This document shows positions 1-60,900 of a DNA stretch of 64,000 nt, piece after piece. How positions within the stretch are numbered: the stretch's first letter is position 1; each line of letters begins with the position of its first letter. A program made the translations under genes and the position numbers. Under the pieces are notes generated by a model. That model was not told where the DNA came from and did not search any database. It was given only the letters and a program-made list of their open reading frames with translations. This DNA is from Centroscyllium fabricii (lineage: Eukaryota), in contig JBNRSN020000015.1 of NCBI GenBank assembly GCA_051313645.2, forward strand, positions 134,292,001 to 134,356,000. Reading direction: 5' to 3'.

Positions 1-1355
1 ATTGAATACCCCAGTCCCTGGTGCTGTTACTCCTGAGAGCTAATCCGTAAAAAGAAGGATAAATGTGTGTCCTATTATCCCACAGCCAGACCCACTGACG
101 CTGGCGTTAGGATTTGTTGTCTACAATAAGGCGCTGGGAAATAAAATCATTCCTTAGTTTCTTAGTGTCTTAATCATTCACGCGGAAAACAAGCAAGGAG
201 ATAGCAAGCCAATTGCGGCACCCTTTCAGCGCCCCGGCTCAGATGGGAAACACTCTGCCCTTCACTATAAACCTTGTGAAAGGGAAAGTGTCTAAATCCT
301 ATAGAAGGCTTTAGCCCTATAGGGAAAAAAAAGATAAGAAAAAAACCTGTCACAGCGATCCTTAAACCCTAATTCGCTGGAGAATGTCCCACTGCCCTGA
401 TTGAAGGGTAGGGTTGATAGAGATGTCTCCCTTGCACTATTGTCACATTATTTATTTTTTCCGCTGCTGGTTGACATGAATCAGCTGGAAACCATATTCC
501 CCCTGATGAGACCTAACCCTGACTTGTGCTTCGAATAATGGACTTTTAAAAATCTGCTCAAACATCCCGGGCACCAGGTTGCGTGCAGCATTAATAAAAG
601 CAGTGTGGATATTGGAAAAAAGGGGTCCCGCTTATTATTTGGGACAACATCGCTTTAACGGTCAACGATACAAAGACTGAGAGACCAGTTAGAGAGAGGG
701 CAGCAGCCGTTCCAATTTGGATTTTAAACCAATTACTGCCTCCTCATATTATTCCGTGTGCTTTAAACGAGATATTAAATGGGACGTCCTCCTATTTGCA
801 ATAATCCCGCTTGCATGAATATCTTTTTTTTAAAGCTAATTGAAATAAAACTTTCACAGAGAAAGCCCCAGAACTCAGTTGGGCTTCCTTTAATCGTTTT
901 ATTTCCGTTTTATTCACCTCAACCGGTGGCGAAAAAGTCATTTTAAGACGGTTTATGTCTGATTCTTAACGTGTTGCACATTGCTCATTGACACGGCGGC
1001 TGGCATTCAGAGGCAACACACTCGATTTCTAACCCCGTGCAGGACAAATTCAGATAACTTCGAAACGCAGCCAGGGTCAGCTGGCCAGAGTATAAAATAT
1101 TCCATTAACAGAAAACGAAACGAAATGACTTCGTATTTTTATTGGCTAAAATGTTTACATTTTTGTTTGTTTCAGTGCAATTTTAGACGCAGGTAAGAGG
1201 TGAGATTCAAACTTCCCTTGTGATCTTTCTCGGACTATTACAGAGGCAGTTGTGATTACACGATTGCTATCGGTGTTGCAATCTGCCCATAAAGAGCGAA
1301 AGTTAATGGTCGGAATTGAGATTTTTTTTAAAGAACTGTTTGACTTTAAATCTGC

Positions 1356-1535
1356 AAGAAGTCACACAACACCAGGTTATAGTCCAACAGTTTTATTTGA
1401 AATCACAAGCTTTCGGAGCGCTGCTCCGAAAGCTTGTGATTTCAAATAAAACTGTTGGACTATAACCTGGTGTTGTGTGACTTCTTGCATTTGTCCACCC
1501 CAGTCCAACACCGGCACCTCCACATCATGGCTACA
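1356..1535 (+). mobile_element. Penelope-derived short palindromic insertion
   Basis: Perfect 67-bp inverted arms (1353-1419/1423-1489) plus tail; TSD TTAAATCTGC at 1346-1355 and 1536-1545. Confidence 0.8.
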
Positions 1536-1734
1536 TTAAATCTGCTGTAACTCCGCCTAAATTATAAACGGTTTCGATTTAGAAATGACTTCAGAAACAG
1601 TTGATGCAAAGGCATTGTTGCTGAAAACTGTTCAGATACAACACGGCTATCATTGGCAAAGCAATCCCCTCTGTTTCGTGTGAAAGAAATGATTACATTT
1701 CATGATCAGGTGAAGTTAAATTGAATACCAGTCC

Positions 1735-6750: not shown

Positions 6751-7092
<342 letters not shown>

Positions 7093-7215
7093 CTAAATGT
7101 ATATATATAGGAAATCACATGCATCAAAAAAAGTTTTACAAATAAAATGGCTCTTTTTTTTGATAATATATATTTATGCAGGTATGTAAATATAGTTAAA
7201 CAATGGTGAGCTTAC

Positions 7216-7257
7216 TTTTCGATTATCCACTACTTGGACTTTTGCATCAGCATGGGT
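7216..7257 (-). CDS. pax6: Pax6 alternative exon 5a (14 aa)
   Basis: 42 bp, tgtag|ACCCATGCTGATGCAAAAGTCCAAGTAGTGGATAATCGAAAA|gtaagc = THADAKVQVVDNRK, cf. human THADAKVQVLDNQN. Confidence 0.96.
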
Positions 7258-7348
7258 CTACAATACAAAAATATACCTTAAATGGCAATGGGAAACGGAC
7301 CAATATTGCATCGATTTCAAGAGAATTTCAGGCGCGTGCCAAAGTTAC

Positions 7349-7398
7349 TTTTTAAAAAAAAAGTTTCAAACTTAATTTTTTTTGCATCAACATTGGGT
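7349..7398 (-). pseudogene. Degenerate tandem duplicate of exon 5a (pseudo-exon, 50 nt)
   Basis: 7381-7471 repeats 7241-7330; tgtag|ACCCAATGTTGATGCAAAA...AAAAA|gtaact; a 1-nt insertion gives ACC CAA TGT TGA (stop). Confidence 0.8.
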
Positions 7399-7696
7399 CT
7401 ACAATACAAAAATAAACCCTTAAATGGCAGGGGGAAATCTTACCATTTCTCAATCATTTCAAGATAATTTCTTGCTTTTTTTTCCTTGCCAATTGTGAAA
7501 GAAATTACTTTGAAGGCACGAATGCAATTTTTAGGAAGCATTTTTGGATTGTAGAAAACCCCTTCTAGAAAATGTTTCAATAAGCTGATTGCATATGCAA
7601 TATTAACACTATGACATCTTGCATGCGTTTTTTAGTTCGATTTTTGCAATGATCTGAATATATATATATATACTTATTAACGACACACCGATATCA

Positions 7697-7903
<207 letters not shown>

Positions 7904-8361
7904 TCACAGCGCCCGTCCTTAATCCCGCAGGAGAGCCCAATTGCGAGAAAAAAAAACTGACCTATAAACGCGCTCTCTTGCTCAAAACACGAAAACTGCC
8001 AATCAAAAACAGAATACCTTACGAGCGACGAAAGCGTCGGTGTGCTCACAAATCCTCTCCACCCGAAAGAAACGCAACAGACCACTCACTCAACGTGGAC
8101 AACCAGAGAAAGCCAACACAGGCGAGATTTTCGCGAAATTGAACGAGAGAGCGCCTAATCGAGCAACTAACAGTTCCTCCTTAAACTGACAATGCAAACT
8201 CAACTGGATTCAAGATTGCAAAAATGACACGTTATCTTCCCGAAATTACAACAGATGCCCCACAAATGCACCACAACAAGCCAATTTTTTTTTGCGTTAT
8301 TATTTTTTTTTAAAACACCCAGAGAAGGGACAGTAATTGTAAGCGCATGGAAACTCCTAAC

Positions 8362-8820
8362 CTGAAACTCAGGCTGGTAACCGTGTCCCTGGAGGAAGCT
8401 CCCCGGCTTATGGAGAGAACCTGTTCTCCTCTCCCTGGGAGCGCCTGCTAAATTGGCTCTACAAAGCCCAGCCACTTAACCATAAATAAGCTCCGAATAT
8501 AGCAGGGGAGGCAAACTGATGAGGCTTGCTGACATTTGTCTCGAAAATCAAGCTAGCTGCACGTCAACTTTGAGCTTAATTTCTAGAAATAAGCGGAAGT
8601 CTCCCTGGATAGTGCACGGAAGGATAATTGAAAAGCTCAGTCCCAAACACTTGTGGCAGGCATGTCACTTTATGACACTGTTCCACTTTGAAAATCGCAT
8701 CGTCACGACAAATGGTAGCATGGCAAAACGTCCCTTTCTGTCCGCATTTGTATATCATTCATAGTGTCTTGCACTATCCTCATTACCCTTAAAGGAAGGC
8801 TTCATTTTAAGGTTGCCTGG
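8362..8820 (-). promoter_or_regulatory. Neuroretina enhancer (NRE/alpha element) and exon alpha, intron 4
   Basis: Minus strand has TTTTCAATTATCCTTCC...GACTTCCGCTTATTTCTAGAAATTAAGCTCAAAGTTGACGTGCAGCTAG...GGAGCTTATTTAT, matching the recalled mammalian alpha region; donor TTTCAG|GTTAGG at 8362/8361. Confidence 0.85.
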
Positions 8821-9529
8821 GGGGCTAGGCGCGGTCACGACACGGGGACGCGCGCCCTACTTAATTCAACACTGTTAAAAAGATGCAAAAACGCTAACCA
8901 TTTAAATTTAAAAAAAAATAATCACATGCATCTAAACATTTTTTTTTAAAGCACATACAGTACATATTTATAGCCTTTTTAAGTTTTAAAATGCCTTTGT
9001 TGATTAGAACCAGGACTCCACAATTACACTTTATCTCCGTTAATCCTGCTATGGTACCTGGACATTCATTTAAAAAAATCTAACTAATGACAAATAATGC
9101 AGTTTTGGGGGGGGGAAGTCAAAAGTACAATTTTTACATAAATTTGAAATACAAGTATTGTAACTATGATAGCGTTTTCTTTTTTTTTAAACCAATCCAT
9201 TAAATTCACATACCACACAGCCATCAGTTCTGAAACGAGCTGGGCATTCTCAAATAACAGCAAAAGGTGTGATTCTTTTGAAAGATACAGTCAGCCCCAG
9301 CTACCTGGAGTACTGACGTGTAGGTGTCTCGAGTTCCCCATCAAAAGGCTGTGTGTACATTAAGCAGTGTACCTTACACTGACTCACACATGCCCAGGCC
9401 TTGACTGCACCCCATCCCGCCCCCTCCCCACCCCCACGCCAAGACTTCCACATGCAAGTTTTATTTTTTTTTGAAAGAGAGGAGATCGTACAAACAGAAG
9501 TTTTTTTAAAAAGTACATCTTAAATCGCA

Positions 9530-9800
9530 GTATTAATCTCTGTGCTGGGGCGTGCGAGAATCGCACAGTGGCAATGATTATGCGCCATGCATTCTATTGC
9601 GAGACATCTAATACGAAAACATATGGTGGCAATTTGGATGCTATGCAGCATATACACCCAGGAGTTATTAGCACAAAGCCCGTAGTGCCCGCCGCGACCT
9701 TTAAACAAACTAAAGACTTCAGCCGAATGATATCTCCTCAGCAATTCGCGCACCAGCTTACTCAATCACACACACACACATCCCATTTCAATTAATCCCA
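9530..9800. promoter_or_regulatory. Candidate intron-4 CNE (ele4-like)
   Basis: Complex non-repetitive block between exon 4 and the NRE; positional inference. Confidence 0.35.
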
Positions 9801-10214
9801 TTATATTGAACTTTTAGTTACACCTTCCGTTCTCAGTGGATATTCTGATGGTACTTTGGAGCGGTTTTAATTTGCTTTTGCAACTAATGTATTTTCCCAA
9901 AACAAAAATAATAGATTATTTTTTTTGGGGGGGTGGTGAAGGGGAGGGGGCGGGGTGTGAAATTTGGAGCAAATGGCTGAGATTAAATATGATCAATATC
10001 CGGTTAGAAAGCAGCCGTGATTGGAAATGGACAAAGAACTCACTGGCGCGCCAGCAAAGCTGCAGATTCAGTTCTGTGGTGAGGTTCGAGTGGCAGGGAA
10101 CCAAGCGTCCTTGCTCAATAAGGGTCCACAGGTAAATGAAGGGAATCGCGCGTATTCTGTGCCCCCCCCCCCCCCCCCCCCCTGTTGAAGTGGTCAGTAA
10201 ATTCAGGGAATAAC

Positions 10215-10310
10215 AACCGAAAATGCTGGCAAAACTCAGCAGGCCAGGCAACATCCGTGGAGAGAGAGACAGAGAGTCGACGTTTCGGGTTCGGACCCTT
10301 TGTCAAGACA
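10215..10310 (-). mobile_element. Penelope-derived fragment (family 2), decayed hammerhead core
   Basis: Minus strand TTGACAAAGGGTCCGAACCCGAAACGTCGAC; similar to 42685-42790. Confidence 0.6.
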
Positions 10311-10682
10311 AGTAAATTCAGGGAGTCGTTTTTTTCTGTTTGGCCTTTAGCACGACATCTCCTGACAACACATAACTGGTAGCCCCCCCTTCCAAACACG
10401 GCCCCTGTCTGACAGTCACAACGGTTACATGCCAGCAATCTTACAACACGGACGCTCGAAACTGCCGGCCAAAGTCTGGCTGGGAAGCTAATTTAAACGT
10501 GTGTTTTTGTTTTAACAATTCTTATTAATTCTGCAACCTGCATATTTGGACTTAACACTTGAAGTACGGGGGGGGGGGGGGGGATGGGTGTCGGGGGGTG
10601 GGGTGGGAGCGACCTGTTCTTTACGCACATCAATGTTTGGCATTTTTGGGTGATTGATATAAGCACATGGAGCATCACTTAC

Positions 10683-10692
10683 TGTTCTGCAT
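10683..10692 (-). CDS. pax6: Pax6 exon 4 coding part (ATG CAG AAC A = MQN-S)
   Basis: CAGCATGCAGAACA|gtaagt; phase 1 joins exon 5 to give [13 protein letters not shown]. Confidence 0.95.
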
Positions 10693-25965: not shown

Positions 25966-27481
25966 ATCAATATGTGTGTGGATCTATTGATAACTGTGTT
26001 CTAATAGGTACATTTGCACATTTTAACGATTGTAGTCAGACTGTACATTTCAGCTATCACTTCCCGTGCAGTTCCAGTACAGTGTTACTGATTTTCAGAC
26101 AGACCATTATTTACACACATTTTGCAGAGTAAATAATTTATTAGGATCTGCCCTCTCACCGCCCGTTCTCAGCCACGGTTTACCGTTTATAACTAAACAT
26201 TCCAGGGAAACGATCTTCACGCGTGTACCGCTTTGCACAGTCCTGATTCGGCAACTGCGTGTTCCCAGCGAGTTTCAGTATCGCTGTGAAAGTTGCATTG
26301 AGGGACTGGGGAACAAAACTGAGCCATTTGGGCATGTTACAGTCAAAAGACGCTCGACCCCTGATCTTTTTAATATAATCTCTCATTCATAGAGGATCTA
26401 TGCAACCGGTTACAATGTTTTTTTTAAATAATAACGGGATAATATTCATTATTCCAAATGCAGGTGTAAGGAGAATCTTTGCTCCGCGTTGCTCCACGTT
26501 TTTATTGAAGGTAGGACCATTTATCAAGTTTTGATTTTTTTTTTACCTCGGTGCAAATGAAGCAATGAGTGTTTTGAAATAAATGTGTGTGTTTGCAATG
26601 TTAGGAAGGAAACTGAAGCAAGCGGTGTTTGCTCCCGCCGTGGATTTGATGGAACAATATGTTGGCAAGTATGGCAGGAAGTGAGTGGATAAGGTTTGAA
26701 CAGGTTTTTTTTTAGCTGTCAGGAAAAGGTGTCTCGCTAATGATCCAACCCGTTGCTATTAGAGGGGGGGGTACTGTGAAACCGTGCAACCGGCCAGGGT
26801 GCTCGAAGGCAGCGCTGGCAACGCCGCGGCCGCTCCTTCTCCGTCTCTCAGCAAAGGCGAGCGCCGCTGAAACCCCGCCAGGTGTTGCCTTGCCCTCTCT
26901 CCAACAGCTCAACTCCAAAAGGAGCTCACCCGTGAAGCAATCTGTGCCGCCAGACCCGTCGCCAGAACGCAAGCTTGTTTCCACGGCCTGCACCATGAGC
27001 ATTTGATCAGTTGATTTTTTGGAGGGGGAGGGGGGTGGGGAGGTTAGGTTAACAGTGGCTAGGTGTCAGAGGGAGCGGATACGAACTGCTCGTTGATGTG
27101 GCGGTCCCAAACATAGGCTGTCTCATCTTGTTTTTTTTTTGTTTGCTGTTGCGTGTGTCAAAAGTCAGGCACTGAGGGTTGCATTTGCAAAGAAAGCATT
27201 TGATCCAACATGGGGGCAATTTTTTATTTCAGATGACACAGTTGTGCACCTATCCACAGCTCTAACTGCCTCAGATACTATCAGTCATTTTATCCAAACG
27301 GATGAATTGCAACTGTGCAATTTACAGCGTCAATTCTGTCGTTACTTTATATATTAAAAAATGAGTTACCTCAAATAACCACACGATTTTTTTTTGGCCG
27401 CTGTTGATTATTTTAATAAGTTCGTATATTGAATCATAAAATAATACCTTAAGGCGAGCTTTTGTCTTCCGGAATTAAATA

Positions 27482-27707
27482 TAATGTGGAGGTGCCGGTG
27501 TTGGACTGGGGTGGACAAATGCAAAAAGTCACACAACACCAGGTTTATAGTCCAACGTTTTATTTTAAATCACAAGCTTTCGGAGCGCTGCTCCTTCCTC
27601 AGGTGACAGAAGAGACTGATTTAAAGATCACACATATCGGAGGAAGGGAGAAATCCGACCTCTTCCCCTAGAGCACACAAGCATATTAGCATACCTTATA
27701 CCTTATA
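27482..27707 (-). mobile_element. Penelope-derived insertion with hammerhead motif
   Basis: Same family as 1356-1535; TSD CGGAATTAAATA at 27470-27481 and 27708-27719. Confidence 0.8.
27571..27605 (-). ncRNA. Minimal type I hammerhead ribozyme motif
   Basis: CAC-CUGAGGA-AGGAGC-AGC-GCUCC-GAAA-GC-U-U-GUG. Confidence 0.6.
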
Positions 27708-28327
27708 CGGAATTAAATAAACAGTGATATTCTGGCATATCTTGCCCCTAAAGGGTGCAATTCTTGTACCTCGCTTTATGGTGGCACTGAAAGATGCCCA
27801 GTCAGGAAGGACCCCATTGTACATTTGCCAGTCCCCAGTGGGTGCACTGAACAGTGTGCTATGTCGGGTGGAAATTGATTGTCTTTAGTTGAGGGGAATT
27901 TACATGGCAGCATCAAAGCTGTATCACAAGTGTGGAGTATCTGAGGCACAATTAGGTGTCATTGAATCTGCAGGAATTAGCATTTCCGAATCGCCTGTTC
28001 GTTTATATACTGCCGATTTTGAGCAGGTTGATATAAATGAATAGAAGACATTCAGGACATGTGCAATACCGCAGCAAACAGGCAACGAGTTTAAGATGTT
28101 CTCTTGATGTTCTGAAGTGGCTTTATCTGATGTCACTTCACTGAAAAGAATACCAGTTGGTTGTTCGATTTGCTTTTTGCGCGGGGTGCCTGGATTGCTC
28201 TTTTGAAGCGCATTTTTTAAATGACCCGGTGCGTTTTTGAAGTCGGCTTTGGTCTTCAGTTGGCAATGACGAAAGAAAATCGCGTCTCCACCGAATGCAC
28301 TGAAATGCCTCCACTTTCTGTTTAAAA

Positions 28328-28450
28328 TGTTCAGAAGTCACACAACACCAGGTTAGAGTCCAGCCGTTTTATTTTTGTTGGACTACATAACCTGGTGTTG
28401 TGTGACTTCTTACATTGGTCCACCCCAGTCCAACACCGGCACCTCCACAT
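28328..28450 (+). mobile_element. Penelope-derived short palindromic insertion (older)
   Basis: AGAAGTCACACAACACCAGGTT...AACCTGGTGTTGTGTGACTTCT plus tail; imperfect TTCTG-TTTAAA flanking duplication. Confidence 0.75.
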
Positions 28451-30789
28451 TCTGCTTTAAAGGTCGAGAGTGGCAAAATATCTCCAATAATGCCGTCTGA
28501 TTTCTGCAGGATCTGGAACTCTTTATGTGACTTTAAGAAAAGGAAAATCTAGATTTGCAAGGTGCTCGATATGATGTCATCTGAATGTGACTAGGTACAC
28601 GCGTTGTGCATTCGGGCTAACCCCCCCCCCCCCCCACCCCAAAAAAAAGAAGAGCCTGTCTCTTTAATTATGGCATTCTTAACATGAATTGCAGGATTCT
28701 CCACAGAAATTTAAATAATTAACCTGCCTTGTTCACGCAGTTTCAGTAACATCGCGAACCTGGACCCGCGCGTACTAAATCTCACTGCAAAATAAAAAGA
28801 GGAAAGATTGATAATCCCGTGCGAGGGGGTTGGACACAAGTACAGAAGGACCCCCCCCCCCCAAAAAAATCCAATTTTCCGGGACTGATTAGAAAAAGTG
28901 GAATTGTACGAGATGGGTAGCAACGAAATGTGGAACCGAATCGTGGACAGGTGAGGTAAAGTAGACTAGACCCATTTAAAGAATCGCACCTTGACGCAGG
29001 CAACGTCAATGCACAACTAAATGAAAGGGCCGTTTTATAGTCTTCAGACAATAATTAACTCTATCAGCACAGTAATCCGCATGTCCCTCTCCCTCCCCCT
29101 CCCCCGCCCCCCACAACCACCCCTCCCCTGTCGCTGAATTTGACTGGACTCTTTCGCCCTGAAACCCCTCTAGTTACACACAGCAAGTCATGGCCCCCAA
29201 ACTGATATTGTGTAAGAGTGATACTAAATCGAAGTCGACCCGAGCAACAGCAATAAGCTCACGAGTAGATCTTACTAATGCCCGGTGGAGCCAACAACCC
29301 TGGACCTCCCTCAATCTAGCTGCAAAAGAAACCGAGGCGATCTTTATACAAGTTTATTATTTTATTTTTAAATCTGCCGACTGGTTTTGTTTTGAGTCCC
29401 CCCGGCATGCAAACAATTGCTGTTTGTTTCAGGGGCTGGGGGTCCCTCTGCTTGGGTTTAGCATGCCCGGGGATGAAATCCACGGTGGGTATGTCAAAGA
29501 GAGGAGGGTGGAAGCTTTGGGAATCGAACCTGCAGAAGGCAACAGTGAGGATCGGGACATTTTCCCTCCCACCTCGCTTCTTTGCTTTAGCGGAAGCAGC
29601 AACGCCAACGAAAAAAATAAAACGCGGACAATCGAATGAAAGAGTCCTAAAGTGACACCGGCCCTCCAATCGGTGCGAGTTGTGGCTGCTGGGGTCAGTT
29701 CGGACGGTGGGACATGTTTTACAGTCAGGGGTTGATCGGCATTCGCTGTCAACCGCATTGCAATTGGGCGGATTCCAATCTAATTTGATCAATTGCTTTT
29801 GCATTGAACCGGTCATTTGCAAATATTTTCTTTTCTGCATGTTAGAATGTGTTCCCCTAACTTCACCCGTGTCTTTGAGGCAGTTACTATCAGCAACAAT
29901 CAGGGAACTGGCCAACATTAGTTGGTTTAATATCAGCTGCCCGCTTGTGATTTCAGGGGATTCATGTCACTTTCACCTGATATGCGGTGCATGAAAGGAT
30001 CGGGGTGGGGGTGCGGGGGTGGGGGGCTCGTGTTAAAAACGGGTGTCCAGTTACAAAATACTGCGCCCAATTATCATGTACATTCCCCACCTCTTTGCCT
30101 GGCAAGGGCTATTTAATATAATTCGTTTTAAGTTGGGAAATCGAGGCCAGTTCTAAAGTGAAATTAAAATTTGTATTATGAGCCCCTGTTATTTTAACAT
30201 ATAACAAACGGCGGGCTTTAAAAAAACTGCATTGGATGTTGGCGCCCGTTAATCGAGTGCATTGTCCTGGCGGGTTATTTGTGAGCAGGCGAAAAATTCG
30301 CGCCACTTGGGGAAATTCAAGTTTGGCTCTGAAGAGGAGGGCTCCGATATCCCAGTGTTCTTGCTGCCAGTGTGGCTGTGAGTCTCATATCGTTCTGCAC
30401 GAGCTGTTGCATTATTATATGATTCCCTTCAGTAACCAGACACTGACAAGCAATTGCAAATGACTGACAGCTGCCAATCCAAATGACAAGTGATTTCTCA
30501 AACAAACATCGACTCGCCAGATAATAACCTTTCTGATCGAGCGCTTGAGGTTCAGGTGCTCTTCTGCATTTATTTTCGTGTTTAAATATCCACCTAGGTT
30601 CACACACACACATGTGTAAAAATCACATGAATACTATCTGGCTGACTATTGCAATTCCCATTTTCTCTTTATATATGCGATTTGTGTTGCTCGGAGGCGC
30701 TTTTAAAGTGTCTACAAACTTCGTGGCTGTTCTGTGCTCTTAGTTACTTGCCTGCACATTTTTTAATAAGCCTGGCTACAGTCTTTGAT

Positions 30790-33215: not shown

Positions 33216-33878
33216 CATTAGGCAACCTGGAGACCAAACACACCAATGTACCATTGATCTCAGGGTAACTTCAAGGCTGTGTTGGGCTTCAATGCAAGAA
33301 AGCCTCAGGTTGAGCTGATGTCCCTGGTTCAATTCAATTCAATTCAAGTTTTATTGTCATTGCAGAGTACTAGTACAATACAACGTGTTGGTGTGTTGTA
33401 GATGTCTAATAGTACATGCTCAACAATCTAAAGAGCCCCGTCCTCAAGAGCACCCTGTCATTTTCTTTAGATTAAACCGAATGCAACTTATGATAGTTGG
33501 ACTTAAGAAAAGTTTTAATATATTTTTGAATGATGTTTTTACTCGGGGTTAGTGAGATGCACCAAACGTCATTCCGATGCACAGTTGGGTACAGGTATGG
33601 TTTTTCCTGCTCTTATACATGAACAGCGAGGGCTGGAGTACAGACAGGACCTCACTGTAACTGTGAACATCCAAGCAAGAAAACAAAATCAATAAAATAA
33701 ATTCAGTTTGTTCCGCGGGCATAACATTCCAGATTGACTACTTGGAAATCGTTTCGTGGTCACAACTATATCACTGGTGAAGATTTGCAGTGGAATGCTG
33801 GAAAACGCAATGCCTCCATATTATAATTGTAAGAAGTCACACAACACCAGGTTATAGTCCAACAGTTTTATTTGAAAT

Positions 33879-33913
33879 CACAAGCTTTCGGAGCGTAGCT
33901 CCTTCGTCAGGTG
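33879..33913 (-). ncRNA. Minimal hammerhead ribozyme motif
   Basis: CAC-CUGACGA-AGGAGC-UAC-GCUCC-GAAA-GC-U-U-GUG. Confidence 0.62.
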
Positions 33914-34040
33914 GAGTGAAGAGATTCATTTAAACACAGCATAGATAGAGAGGGAGAGAACAATGTGGTCTCTCCAACTGAGAATACATTGTTCTCTCTC
34001 CCTCTCTATATATATGCTGTGTTTAAATGAATCTCCACTC

Positions 34041-34075
34041 CACCTGATGAAGGAGCTACGCTCCGAAAGCTTGTG
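34041..34075 (+). ncRNA. Minimal hammerhead ribozyme motif
   Basis: CAC-CUGAUGA-AGGAGC-UAC-GCUCC-GAAA-GC-U-U-GUG; palindromic AAGCUU at stem III. Confidence 0.65.
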
Positions 34076-34479
34076 ATTTCAAATAAAACTGTTGGACTAT
34101 TACCTGGTGTTGTGTGACTTCTTACAATTGTCCACCCCAGTCCAACACGGCACCTCCACATCATCCATATTATAAGGGCACAGAATCACAGGAGAAATGG
34201 CATTTATTTTTTTAACACGAATGATACCAGATCTGAGAGGGCAGAACTATCAGGAAAGACTGAACAGGCGAGGGCTCTTTTCTCTAGAAGAGAGATCATA
34301 ATCTTCGAAATTGTGTGACTTCTTACATAATCTTAGAAGTTGGATTTGATTGTCGACCTTATCAACCAGGCATTGAATTGGAGCTTTTTTACACACTCTC
34401 CTGTGTGTATGCCTACAATGTTTTAAAACGTTAGATGTATATTTTGAGTTGCTGGTTGTGATGGAGGTAAGTTGCACTG

Positions 34480-34960
34480 CCTGAATTAAATGTATACAGA
34501 ACCCTGCTAAGATCACACTTGGAGTACTGGGCACAGTCCTTGTCTCCGTATTACATAAAGGACATAGAGGCACTGGAGAAGGTGCAAACAGGATAAACAA
34601 AGATGATACCAGAACTGAGAGGATGTAACTAGCAGGAAACATCGAGCAGGCTAGGGCTCTTTTTCTTAGAAAGAAGACAGAGGGGTGACCTGATAGAGTC
34701 TTTAAAATGATGAAGGGGTTTCAACAGGGTCGAAGTAGAGAAGATGTCTCCACTTGTTGGGGAGATCAGAACTAGGGGACATAATTACAAGAGAGTGGCT
34801 AATAAACCCAATAAGGAATTCAGGAGAAACTTCTTTGCTCAGAGAGTGGCGGCAATGGGGAACTCGCTATCACAGGGAGTGGTTGAGGCGAATAGCATCG
34901 ATTCATTTAAGGGGAGGTTGGATAAACACACGAGGGAGGAAGGGATAAAGGATATCTCAT
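34480..34960 (+). mobile_element. Degenerate CR1-type LINE 3' fragment
   Basis: RTRGHNYK...EFRRNFFAQRV...NSLSQGVVEANSIDSFKGRLD. Confidence 0.8.
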
Positions 34961-45356: not shown

Positions 45357-45950
45357 CAGGTTGAGCACCATTAATCCGGCACCCTCAGGACCAGGCCAGT
45401 GCCGGACCACTGAAAATTCCGAACCACTGAAGGTTCAGGGGGAGCGCGCGGTAGAACACTTGCCGGGGCCTGGAGCGTGCGGTAGAACACTCCCCGGGGC
45501 CCGGAGCGTGTGGTAGAACACTCCCCGGGGCCCGGAGCGCACGGTAGAACACTCCCCGGGGCCCGGAGCGTGTGGTAGAACACTCCCCGGGGCCCGGAGC
45601 GTGTGGTAGAACACTCCCCGGGGCCCAGAGCGTGCGGTAGAACACTCCCCGGGGCCCAGAGCACGCGGTAGAACACTCCCCGGGGCCCAGAGCGTGTGGT
45701 AGAACACTCCCCGGGGCCCGAAGCGCGCGGTAGAACACTGCCCGGGAGGGAGCCCGGGGACAGAACACTTACAAGACCTGAAAAAACAGAAACCCAAATG
45801 CCCGACTCCTTCGGCGCTTGCTCACCCGTCACGGGAAATGGTGGCGCCACCAAGCAGCTGCTCTGCAAGATGAAGAGCGCCAATTTCCAATCGTGCCGAA
45901 CCACTGAAGCTGCCGGACCATCGGGTGCCAGATTACCGGTGCTCAACCGG
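45357..45950. mobile_element. Tigger/pogo-like MITE with internal minisatellite
   Basis: CAGGTTGAGCACC...GGTGCTCAACCGG|TA; reverse-complement homolog at 56502-56778. Confidence 0.85.
45445..45745. repeat. 31-bp GC-rich minisatellite, ~10 units
   Basis: GGTAGAACACTCCCCGGGGCCCGGAGCGTGT starting at 45450, 45481, 45512 ... 45729. Confidence 0.95.
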
Positions 45951-47867: not shown

Positions 47868-48908
47868 ATGTTTTTGTGACTGGAAGCCTGTGTCCAGTGG
47901 GATACCGCAGGGATCGGTGCTGGGTCCCTTGCTGTTTGTCGTCTACATTAATGATTTGGATATGAATGTAAAAGGTATGATCAGTAAGTTCGCAGATGAC
48001 ATGAAAATTGGTGGAGTGGTAAATAGTGAGGAGGGAAGCCTCAGTCTGCAGGACGATATAGATGGGTTGGATGGGCAGAACAGTGGCAAATGGAATTTAA
48101 CCCTGAGAAATGTGAGGTGATGCATTTTGGGAGGACTAACAAGGCAAGGGAATACACAATGAATGGCAGGACCCTAAGAAGGAGAGAGGATCAGAGGGAC
48201 CTTGGTGTGCATGTACATAGATCCCTGAAGGCAGCAGAACAGGTAGATAAGGTGGTTAAAAAGGCATATGGGATACTTGCCTTCATTAGCCGAGGCTTAG
48301 AATATAAGAGCAGGGAGGTTATGATGGAGCTGTACAAAACGTTAGTTAGGCCACAGCTGGAGTACTTTGTGCGGTTCTGGTCGCCACACTATAGGAAGGT
48401 TGTAATTGCTTTGGAGAGGGTGCAGAGGAGATTCACCAGGATGCTACCTGGGCTGGAGCGCTTCAGCTATGAAGAAAGACTGGACAGGCTGGAGTTGTTT
48501 TCCTTGGAGCAGAGAAGGCTGAGGGGGGACCTGATTGAGATGTACAAAATTATAAGGGGCACAGATAGGGTAGATAGAAAGGAACTTGTTCCCTTAGTAG
48601 AGGGGTCAATAACAAGGGGGCATAGTTTCAAGGTAAGGGGCCGGAGGTTTAGAGGGGATTTGAGGATGACCTTTTTCACCCAGAGGGTGGTTGGAATCTG
48701 GAACTCACTGCCTGAAAGGGTGGTGGAGGCAGGAACCCTCACAACATTCAAGAAGCATTTAGCTGAGCACTTGAAATGCCATAGCATACAAGGCTATGGA
48801 CCAAATGCAGGAAAAGGGAATTAGAATAGACAGGGCTTGATGGACGGCATGGACGCGATGGGCTGAAGGGCCTCTTTCTGTGCTGTATAACTCTATGACT
48901 CTACGACA
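47868..48908 (+). mobile_element. CR1 LINE 3' ~1 kb (subfamily B)
   Basis: SGIPQGSVLGPLLF...KFADD RT motifs; frameshift near 48070; C-terminal ORF 48090-48824. Confidence 0.92.
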
Positions 48909-55587: not shown

Positions 55588-56042
55588 TCAATTCAATTCA
55601 AGTTTTATTGTCATTGCAGAGTACTAGTACAATACAACGAGACGAAGACTCGACGCTCCCGAGAGTAGTGCAAATAAATTACATGCAAATTGCATACAGT
55701 AAAGTACATTTTCAGGTGTGCAGGTACCGGAGTTTATTTTTAGAGTTCAGGTGGCTGACAGCCCTGGGGAAGAAGCTGTTCTTAAATCTAGTCGTGCAGG
55801 TGCAAATTGATCTGTAGTGTCTCCCGGAGGGCAGTGGGGCGAACAGACTGTGGCTGGGGTGTGTGGGGTCTTTAATAATGTTCAGAGACCTGTGTAGGCA
55901 GCGTTTGAGGTAGATGCTTTCCATTGACGGTAGCTGGGTACCGGTGATTCGTTGGGCAGTTTTGACCACCCGCTGCAGGGTCTTCCGGTCCGAGATGGTG
56001 CAATTTCCATACCAGACTGTGATGCAGCTTGTCAGTATGCTC
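55588..56042 (-). mobile_element. Rex1/Babar-like LINE 3' end
   Basis: SILTSCITVWYGNCT...DPTHPSHSLFAPLPSGR...RFKNSFFPRAV; (TTGAA)n tail. Confidence 0.85.
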
Positions 56043-59724: not shown

Positions 59725-60900
59725 GGTGGTTGGCCAGATCACCAACAACGACGAGTCAGCCTACAGGGATGAGATCCAGCGCCTTGTGGGATGGTGTGCC
59801 GACAACAACCTGGCACTGAACACCAAGAAAATTACGGAGATCATAGTGGACTTCCGGAGGACTGAAAGCAGAAGACACACCCCCATCTTCATCCAAGGGG
59901 CTGAGGTGGAAAGGGTGTCCAGCTTCAAGTTCCTCGGGGTCCACATCTCGGAAGACCTCTCCTGGTCACTAAACACCTCCTCTCTGGTTAAGAAGGCCTA
60001 ACAGCGCCTGTACTTCCTAAGGAAGCTGAAGAAAGCCAGGCTGTCATCCGGCATCCTCTCCAACTTCTACCGCTGCACAATCGAAAGCATACTGACAAGC
60101 TGCATCACTGTCTGGTATGGAAATTGCACCATCTCCGACCGGAAGACCCTGCAGCGGGTAGTCAAAACTGCCCAACGAATCACCGGTATCCAGCTACCGT
60201 CAATTGAAAGCATCTCCCTCAAACGCTGCCTACGGAGGTCTCTGAACATTATTAAAGACCCCACACACCCCAGCCACAGTCTGTTCGTCCCCCCCTGCCC
60301 TCCGGGAGACGCTACAGATCAATTCGCACCCGCACGACCAGATTCAAGAACAGCTTCTTCCCCAAGGCTGTCAGCCTCCTGAACTCTAAAAAAAACCTCC
60401 GGTACCTGCACACCTGAAAATGTACTTTACTGTATGCAATCTGCATGTAATTTATTTGCACTACTCTCCGAATAATTTAAAACGGCAATAGACTGTTTTT
60501 TAGCAGACAAGGGAATTAGGGGTTACGGGGAGCAGGCAGGGAAGTGGACCTGAGCTATTGTTAGTATAGTAAGACCTGAGTGATCTCCTGGACAAGTTTC
60601 GATCGCCTAGATTGGGGTCGGAGAGGAATTTCCCGGATTTTTTTCCCAAATTGGCCTGGGTTTTTATCCGGTTTTTCGCCTCTCCCAGGAGATCACATGG
60701 TTTTTCGGGTGGGATGAAGGGTGATAGTGGGAAGAAGGTTAGGGTAGGATCAGCCATGATCTTATTGAATGGCGGAGCGGGCTCGAGGGGCCGATTGGCC
60801 GACTCCTGCTCCTATTTCTTATGTTCTTATGAGTCTTCGTCTCATTGTATTGTACTAGTGCTCTGCAATGACAGTAAAACTTGAATTGAATTGAATTGAA
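59725..60900 (+). mobile_element. Rex1/Babar-like LINE 3' part with a CR1 3'UTR inserted at ~60472-60831
   Basis: GQITNNDESAYRDEI...LALNTKK...FKFLGVHISEDLSW...KKA*QRLYFLRKL; (TTGAA)n tail resumes after the insert. Confidence 0.85.

Follow-up and report, generated by a model that had tools for sequence, protein, structure and literature searches.

Positions 33815-34175 of the stretch analysed here (the window, 64,000 nucleotides of Centroscyllium fabricii DNA) hold a palindrome with a hammerhead ribozyme motif on each strand. Does this locus represent a palindromic element that moves as a unit with its pair of ribozymes, or does the palindrome result from the way in which an element of a known class inserts? 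In our best explanation, the focal insertion, copy D, arose when the terminal-repeat (pLTR) end of a Penelope-like element (PLE) inserted once, and the insertion is dead, a real but ordinary truncated end. It is probably a PLE-type insertion whose palindrome was made on landing. This assessment covers more than one version of the joining step and of the donor RNA, so that the likelihoods given below to the rival explanations overlap with it.

Anatomy and surroundings of the focal insertion

The insert occupies positions 33827-34163 and measures 337 bp, close to the approximately 340 bp of the initial annotation. It is flanked by the 12-bp target-site duplication that had been described, with TCCATATTATAA found at 33815-33826 and again at 34164-34175. 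Ten of the 12 positions are A or T, and the probability of such a duplication by chance is about 1e-4 when 30x30 boundary offsets are considered. The inverted arm begins within the left duplication, whose last 2 nt it shares. The arms, annotated as roughly 140 bp, are arranged head-to-head and span approximately 143 bp each (33825-33966 against 33986-34129). The left arm (33825-33985, minus strand) is an inverted, tail-less, 5'-truncated copy of the pLTR and includes 19 nt of the central loop, while the right arm (33986-34163, plus strand) is a direct 5'-truncated copy with the tail. The fold-back centre at 33967-33985 contains a 4-bp TCTC/GAGA stem and a 7-nt loop, with one mismatch and one G-T pair, and its letters are the linear family sequence of the left arm.

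The two arms are identical in 136 of 147 aligned columns and differ by 3 substitutions, three internal 2-nt indels and one end gap. All of copy D folds as one hairpin of -253.5 kcal/mol (z -35), which beats 100/100 shuffles. A fold-back artefact of the assembly was rejected, because there are 6 internal differences between the arms and both a tail and a duplication belong to the unit.

The unpaired tail, estimated previously at about 35 nt, is an AC-rich segment of 34 nt (34130-34163, plus strand) that is found at one end only. The AATAAA hexamer is present at 34082-34087 on the plus strand as a putative signal, and a poly(A) tract follows the hexamer in no copy. Stops occur in all frames of both arms, leaving no coding function. 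Just upstream of the right-arm ribozyme, the region 34007-34040 contains a TATA-like run and, some 20 nt beyond it, an initiator-like word, CACT/TCACT. These putative promoter-like words recall the putative pLTR promoter of the rotifer element Pen2a (PMC3846280).

Copy D sits at the edge of a repeat-rich stretch. A paired-box exon at approximately 6870-7092, minus strand, is closest to PAX-6. From motifs, we take the Pax6-like gene to extend over 6751-10692 on the minus strand, with the preceding paired-box exon near 7822 and a candidate start near 10692. These positions place copy D approximately 23 kb upstream of the Pax6-like gene, and nothing ties the two together.

The window contains several other repeats. 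Sharks and rays (Stegostoma, Chiloscyllium, Hypanus, Leucoraja and Mobula) come first among the named eukaryotic matches of a LINE frame at 48030-48821. The two top named matches of this frame are labelled Klebsiella and Proteus, lie on 1.6-kb contigs, and are probably vertebrate contamination of bacterial records. A dispersed family of approximately 400 bp occurs at 2116-2517 and at many places within 32487-64000, with at least 8 long copies that are 84-95% alike. Many shorter 3' pieces of this family are common to LINE ends, and it looks like a shark SINE/LINE pair, perhaps HE1/HER1. A tandem array at 45441-45746 consists of ~62-bp units that are ~91% alike. A LINE 3' fragment with a frame that matches Pfam ALKBH8_N occurs twice, at 55661-56041 and 60086-60468, the two copies being inverted relative to each other and 95% alike.

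Relatives with shared ends and different centres

A BLAST search of the window identified four more relatives of copy D: A, B, C and a probable E. Copy A (1346-1545, plus strand), downstream of the paired-box exons and probably in an intron, is palindromic, with a 10-bp duplication and a 46-nt tail, which extends 8 nt beyond the usual end and takes in an ATG. It folds back inside hammerhead stem II, so that the CUGANGA box is in neither arm and no complete ribozyme is present. At 27470-27719 on the minus strand, copy B consists of one arm with a tail, a 12-bp duplication and a complete hammerhead at 27571-27605, and has no long inverted arm. The 5' 60 nt of copy B (27645-27707) are unlike the region upstream in copy D and comprise an imperfect purine/pyrimidine hairpin and a short TACCTTA repeat; judging from this sequence, they could be the pLTR of another subfamily or captured filler DNA. 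Copy C (28316-28461, plus strand) is a short palindrome that stops before the ribozyme, with a tail of 32-33 nt and a duplication of 11-12 bp with one indel. At 34297-34342 (plus strand), 12-17 nt of the family lie between 17-bp direct repeats with 2 mismatches (BLAST E 0.005). This probable copy E ends at the tail-less end in direct orientation, 120 bp from copy D, and is perhaps an extremely truncated fifth insertion.

The outer ends of these copies agree. In copy D coordinates, the tail-less ends are at 34126 (A, E) and 34129 (C, D), and the tailed ends at ~34161 (C), 34163 (B, D) and 34171 (A), an agreement within 3 nt for the inverted arm and within 11 nt for the tail. The earlier remark that the inverted arm starts at about the same point was therefore accurate, with 3/3 palindromic copies agreeing within 3 nt of family position. 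The inverted arm overlaps the left duplication by 3 nt in A and by 2 nt in both C and D. The duplications of D, A and B are perfect (12, 10 and 12 bp), with 26 A+T among their 34 positions. An inverted, head-to-head, 5'-truncated copy is present in 3/5 window copies. The BLAST comparison found no direct pLTR tandem among the 5, a feature that is optional in truncated copies, and the window contains no head-to-tail array.

The fold-back centres of A, C and D, by contrast with their ends, are at three different places (3/3). Small inverted repeats of the template underlie the centres of A and D, and none is clear at the centre of C. In all three palindromes the loop letters are supplied by the tail-less arm. 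Whole hammerheads are kept in one palindrome of the three, copy D. The shared outer ends, the differing centres, the presence of whole hammerheads in D alone and the existence of a single-arm copy together indicate that the palindrome is a by-product of each insertion.

We looked at the family beyond the window in other sequencing runs. Part of the copy D arm was found in 20 of the 22 runs listed (10 studies), with half of its words or more in 8. None of the listed runs with the arm is on record as RNA, and run X5 is perhaps RNA. Four runs, labelled as four organisms, were aligned to 33985-34590 at 80% likeness, all of the records being contigs. The alignments comprise 32389, 5564, 7230 and 13576 contigs, counts that include contigs on two LINE fragments in the flank; among the contigs listed, none spans the full stretch. 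The summed depth over 34048-34131 is 0.3-12 million, against 0-53 in the unique flank bins 34174-34215 and 34300-34467. This depth marks a very abundant repeat, though it is no copy number. In runs X15 and X18 the depth falls below 100 upstream of 34027, and in runs X1 and X18 poorly agreeing loose ends accumulate before 34041. The drop and the loose ends indicate that stem I of the ribozyme is where the subfamilies begin to be alike. In runs X5 and X18, loose ends that agree poorly also occur after 34164.

Fold-back centres vary in these runs as well. Among the 15 joints listed, 4 switch strand (34041/34073, 34041/34110, 34041/34128 and 34065/34131, with 1-3 contigs each), constituting four further centres. 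The centre of copy D itself lies at the edge of the aligned stretch and could not appear as a joint. In run X1, 56 contigs extend before 33997 with the linear sequence of D's loop and not with D's fold-back.

The idea of a fixed palindromic family with two ribozymes is not supported by these comparisons. The centres differ, two of the three palindromes are without whole hammerheads, the single-arm copy B has its own 12-bp duplication, and the contigs beyond D's centre mostly carry linear, unfolded sequence. That the palindrome moves as a non-autonomous unit, with a ribozyme on each strand switched by the antisense arm, would agree with the two intact motifs and clean duplication of copy D. We regard this as improbable, given that whole ribozymes occur in 1/3 palindromes, the centres differ, the tail is one-sided, the 56 X1 contigs continue upstream linearly, and both ribozymes are predicted to be masked even in a nascent transcript.

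Long inverted arms with a 10-12-bp duplication may also suggest a DNA transposon (a MITE or a Foldback/Mutator element), and Rfam microRNA hairpins match the locus below threshold, as a microRNA-like hairpin gene would. Such origins are very improbable. MITEs and Foldback/Mutator elements have inverted repeats at both termini of every copy. Here the arms reach only one of the two ends, the ends vary and the single-arm copy B has its own duplication; the one-sided tail and copy B contradict terminal inverted repeats, and these transposons were rejected. The microRNA gene was rejected as well, because the Rfam matches are at least 29 bits under the gathering scores, and such matches are expected of any long hairpin.

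A conserved hammerhead, predicted to be masked

The annotated hammerheads on each strand were recovered as minimal type I motifs, at 34041-34075 (plus strand) in the right arm and at 33879-33913 (minus strand) in the left arm, with predicted cuts after 34072 and 33882, respectively. A descriptor that requires stem I, both core boxes, four stem II pairs and a palindromic helix III identified 3 motifs in the window, these two and the one at 27571-27605, and none in 200/200 shuffles. The right-arm motif consists of stem I CAC/GUG, the core CUGAUGA, an extra A, a 5-bp stem II with a 3-nt loop, GAAA and AGCU. The extra A is at 34051, between A9 and stem II. A palindromic helix III exists as annotated, but it is not the full AAGCUU; only AGCU (34068-34071) can pair. 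U is the weakest letter at the cleavage site of a hammerhead. Rfam finds no hammerhead at the gathering score in the window, nor up to E 10 in 33700-34300, and minimal hammerheads seem not to be modelled there. The copy D motif bears the PLE-type marks of an extra base after A9, the pair G10.1-C11.1 and a palindromic 15.2-16.2 (features according to PMC4209133).

Copies B and D differ at 3 positions of the 35-nt ribozyme, all of them among the 4 free positions (N7 and loop II), a clustering with p = 0.0006 (0.01 when the change in the loop counts as one event). By comparison, 27/42 columns are identical just upstream of the ribozyme and 81/90 downstream. The N7 letter differs in each of the three window hammerheads and is C in the left arm of D. 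Among the 40 variants listed for the aligned runs, 19 are in the arm and 2 of these are in the ribozyme, both in loop II. A lack of preferential conservation of the ribozyme had been named as evidence against the ribozyme-bearing family; the window copies differ only at N7 and loop II, which is the opposite outcome. To judge from these comparisons, the conservation reflects selection that acted on the donor lineage and not on the copy inserted here. The hammerhead would be inherited from the pLTR, be kept there by selection and act as a dimer or with the help of a protein. Dimer cleavage of PLE hammerheads is reportedly the subject of a study by Lunse et al.

The antisense arm was expected to mask the sense ribozyme, and our folding calculations agree. 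The probability of stem II is ~1e-17 in the palindrome on both strands, compared with 0.94-0.96 in single arms, and the computed value holds also for a nascent transcript that ends 10 nt past the motif. Since the antisense arm of copy D is transcribed first on either strand, the model predicts that the ribozyme is masked and most likely silent. The head-to-head arrangement also means that one transcript never holds two sense ribozymes, which closes the intramolecular dimer route. For isolated motifs, a forced active dimer is predicted at -18.3 kcal/mol, against -14.4 kcal/mol for two stem II hairpins. The best predicted dimer (-25.5 kcal/mol) is another fold that beats the forced active one. 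PLE minimal hammerheads have been described to cleave weakly even as dimers (PMC4209133), and the hammerhead of the anole PLE depends on protein and can be dispensed with for in vitro insertion (PMC11167929). Long perfect hairpins, when scattered through a genome, may feed double-stranded-RNA pathways.

Donor, landing and known systems

We searched for the partner enzyme of the family. Among 150 of the 153 window frames of at least 85 codons, none encodes the PLE reverse transcriptase or GIY-YIG; the only domains found are PAX, the RVT_1 of LINE fragments, and ALKBH8_N. Exact-pattern scans of metagenome, viral and prokaryote collections returned 0 loci. Protein searches with the translated tail region gave 0 matches, which is weak evidence, because the query region is probably untranslated. 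The frame from the ATG of the ribozyme stops after 9 codons, and a candidate ATG is located at the tail end. As no PLE reading frame was found in these searches, strict membership of the focal family in the PLEs, which the enzyme would define, is provisional. Copy A continues past the usual tail end (1527-1535) through this ATG, and the contigs of run X1 continue likewise, as does their consensus. From its position in the sequence, the ATG is possibly the start codon of the partner ORF.

Since the autonomous partner was not found, the donor may be a short non-autonomous element in its own right (a SINE or retrozyme monomer that derives from the pLTR and bears the hammerhead), which a PLE mobilises in trans, with the palindrome still made at insertion. 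None of the 5 window copies reaches coding sequence, the arm is very deeply covered in 4/4 aligned runs, with likeness beginning at the ribozyme in two, and one chondrichthyan genome has been reported to contain pLTR-derived retrozymes (bioRxiv 10.64898/2026.07.22.740005). We consider this donor less probable than not. Strong 5' truncation of a full PLE would produce the same stumps (bioRxiv 10.64898/2026.07.22.740005), the copies have no common 5' end and the window no head-to-tail array, and the family continues past the tail into an ATG (copy A and contigs), as expected of a pLTR-ORF junction. One record of run X18 joins the tail (34148) to the ribozyme start (34042), perhaps representing a head-to-tail unit of ~120 nt like a retrozyme monomer or a partial tandem.

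The link to Penelope-like elements holds up on anatomy, with an AT-rich duplication, head-to-head arms and a one-sided tail, and on the minimal, dimer-type hammerhead. PLEs are described as typically having, at the 5' end, an inverted copy that is 5'-truncated and, at one end, a tail of 30-40 bp (PMC8557442). In a rotifer, one copy combines an inverted pLTR with a 31-bp tail and a 9-bp duplication, and its ORF begins within the pLTR and tail (PMC3846280); in D. virilis, copies contain a 34-bp repeat and inverted ends whose size varies (PMC2377424). In the anole, the PLE protein cuts both strands and extends them, favours AT-rich DNA and initiates at two internal sites, which delimit the tail (PMC11167929).

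In the preferred explanation, an insertion whose palindrome is made on landing, the PLE reverse transcriptase-endonuclease would nick both strands 10-12 nt apart. One nick would prime cDNA synthesis at a distal start site and produce the arm with the tail. The other would prime at a proximal start site ~34 nt further in, giving rise to the tail-less inverted arm. Both cDNAs would abort after ~40-180 nt and be joined, usually via a small inverted repeat of the template, after which the gaps would be filled. The joining repeat would be TCTC/GAGA in copy D and the ribozyme's own stem II in copy A. Constant outer ends and variable centres would be the trace expected of two primed, aborted cDNAs. 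Against this explanation, the centre of copy C is without clear microhomology and the tail of copy A, at 46 nt, exceeds the usual 30-40.

It is possible, with less than even chances, that one cDNA (or an antisense template) folded back and primed itself to form the inverted arm and that the tail was left by endonuclease resolution, which differs from the preferred explanation in the joining step only. The junction letters alone would fit both the joining of two cDNAs and the fold-back of one; a loop supplied by the tail-less arm in 3/3 leans to fold-back, and the centres of A and D lie on small template inverted repeats. The arms of D share the minority variants T34057, A34058 and A34127, each at 33-38% of the run X1 summed depth. 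Fold-back has also been proposed in PMC3846280 and, for the tail, in PMC8557442. However, in 3/3 the inverted arm shares 2-3 nt with the duplication and ends at a fixed site, as if target-primed, copy E seems to use the same fixed site in direct orientation, and both strands are extended in vitro (PMC11167929).

The origin of PLE inverted copies and tails is called unresolved (PMC8557442, PMC11167929). Copy D by itself matters little, being a fossil whose class and signature are both known. The family could be useful as material: its copies are very short, their duplications are intact and both ends are visible, so that rival PLE models can be tested by counting. A more speculative reading, to which we give rather less than half of our confidence, is that many PLE-dependent fold-back insertions of an abundant short shark/ray hammerhead element, possibly a true SINE, record how Penelope integrates, with a nick priming at each start site and the tail-less cDNA folding back on a template hairpin. 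If true, genomes alone would settle how PLE inversions and tails arise.

The focal family is probably catalogued in Repbase/Dfam. The parts of the literature on Penelope elements, sharks or elasmobranchs, and hammerheads that we consulted contain no description of it, nor of PLE twin priming. Shark names and short family motifs are absent from two supplementary files of PMC4209133 and one of PMC8557442, as far as their consulted contents go. Penelope is listed in the whale shark genome (PMC8455134), and the chondrichthyan retrozyme closest to the focal family may stand in the supplements of bioRxiv 10.64898/2026.07.22.740005.

Animal non-LTR retrozymes resemble copy D in being non-coding and pLTR-like with a type I hammerhead (bioRxiv 10.64898/2026.07.22.740005). 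Retrozymes, however, are head-to-tail arrays, which lets two ribozymes dimerise, while copy D is head-to-head. Minimal hammerheads on opposite strands, 100-700 bp apart, have been noted in Schistosoma (PMC4209133). Like the minimal type I hammerheads of metazoan PLEs, that of copy D has no helix III beyond the palindromic pair and a short helix I; unlike the others described there, it has a helix I of 3 bp, a helix II of 5 bp and U at the cleavage site (PMC4209133). In PAc, the Poseidon element of Anolis carolinensis, two preferred ends also delimit an AC-rich tail and the targets are AT-rich (PMC11167929). The PAc ORF starts at stem II and contains the tail more than 100 nt inside, whereas the shark frame from the ribozyme ATG is closed after 9 codons.

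The closest likeness is to insertions of EN+ PLEs (Penelope/Poseidon, Neptune, and Pen2a_Av of Adineta vaga; PMC3846280, PMC8557442), which share the head-to-head inverted copy, the one-sided 30-40-nt tail, the short duplication, the hammerhead in the pLTR and a small palindrome at the inverted junction. Copy D differs from them in having the pLTR end only, without an ORF or a second direct pLTR, and the duplications are 10-12 bp in the shark family compared with 8-10 in the rotifer (PMC3846280). While the enzyme frame was not found, copy D matches a PLE insertion on every structural feature tested.
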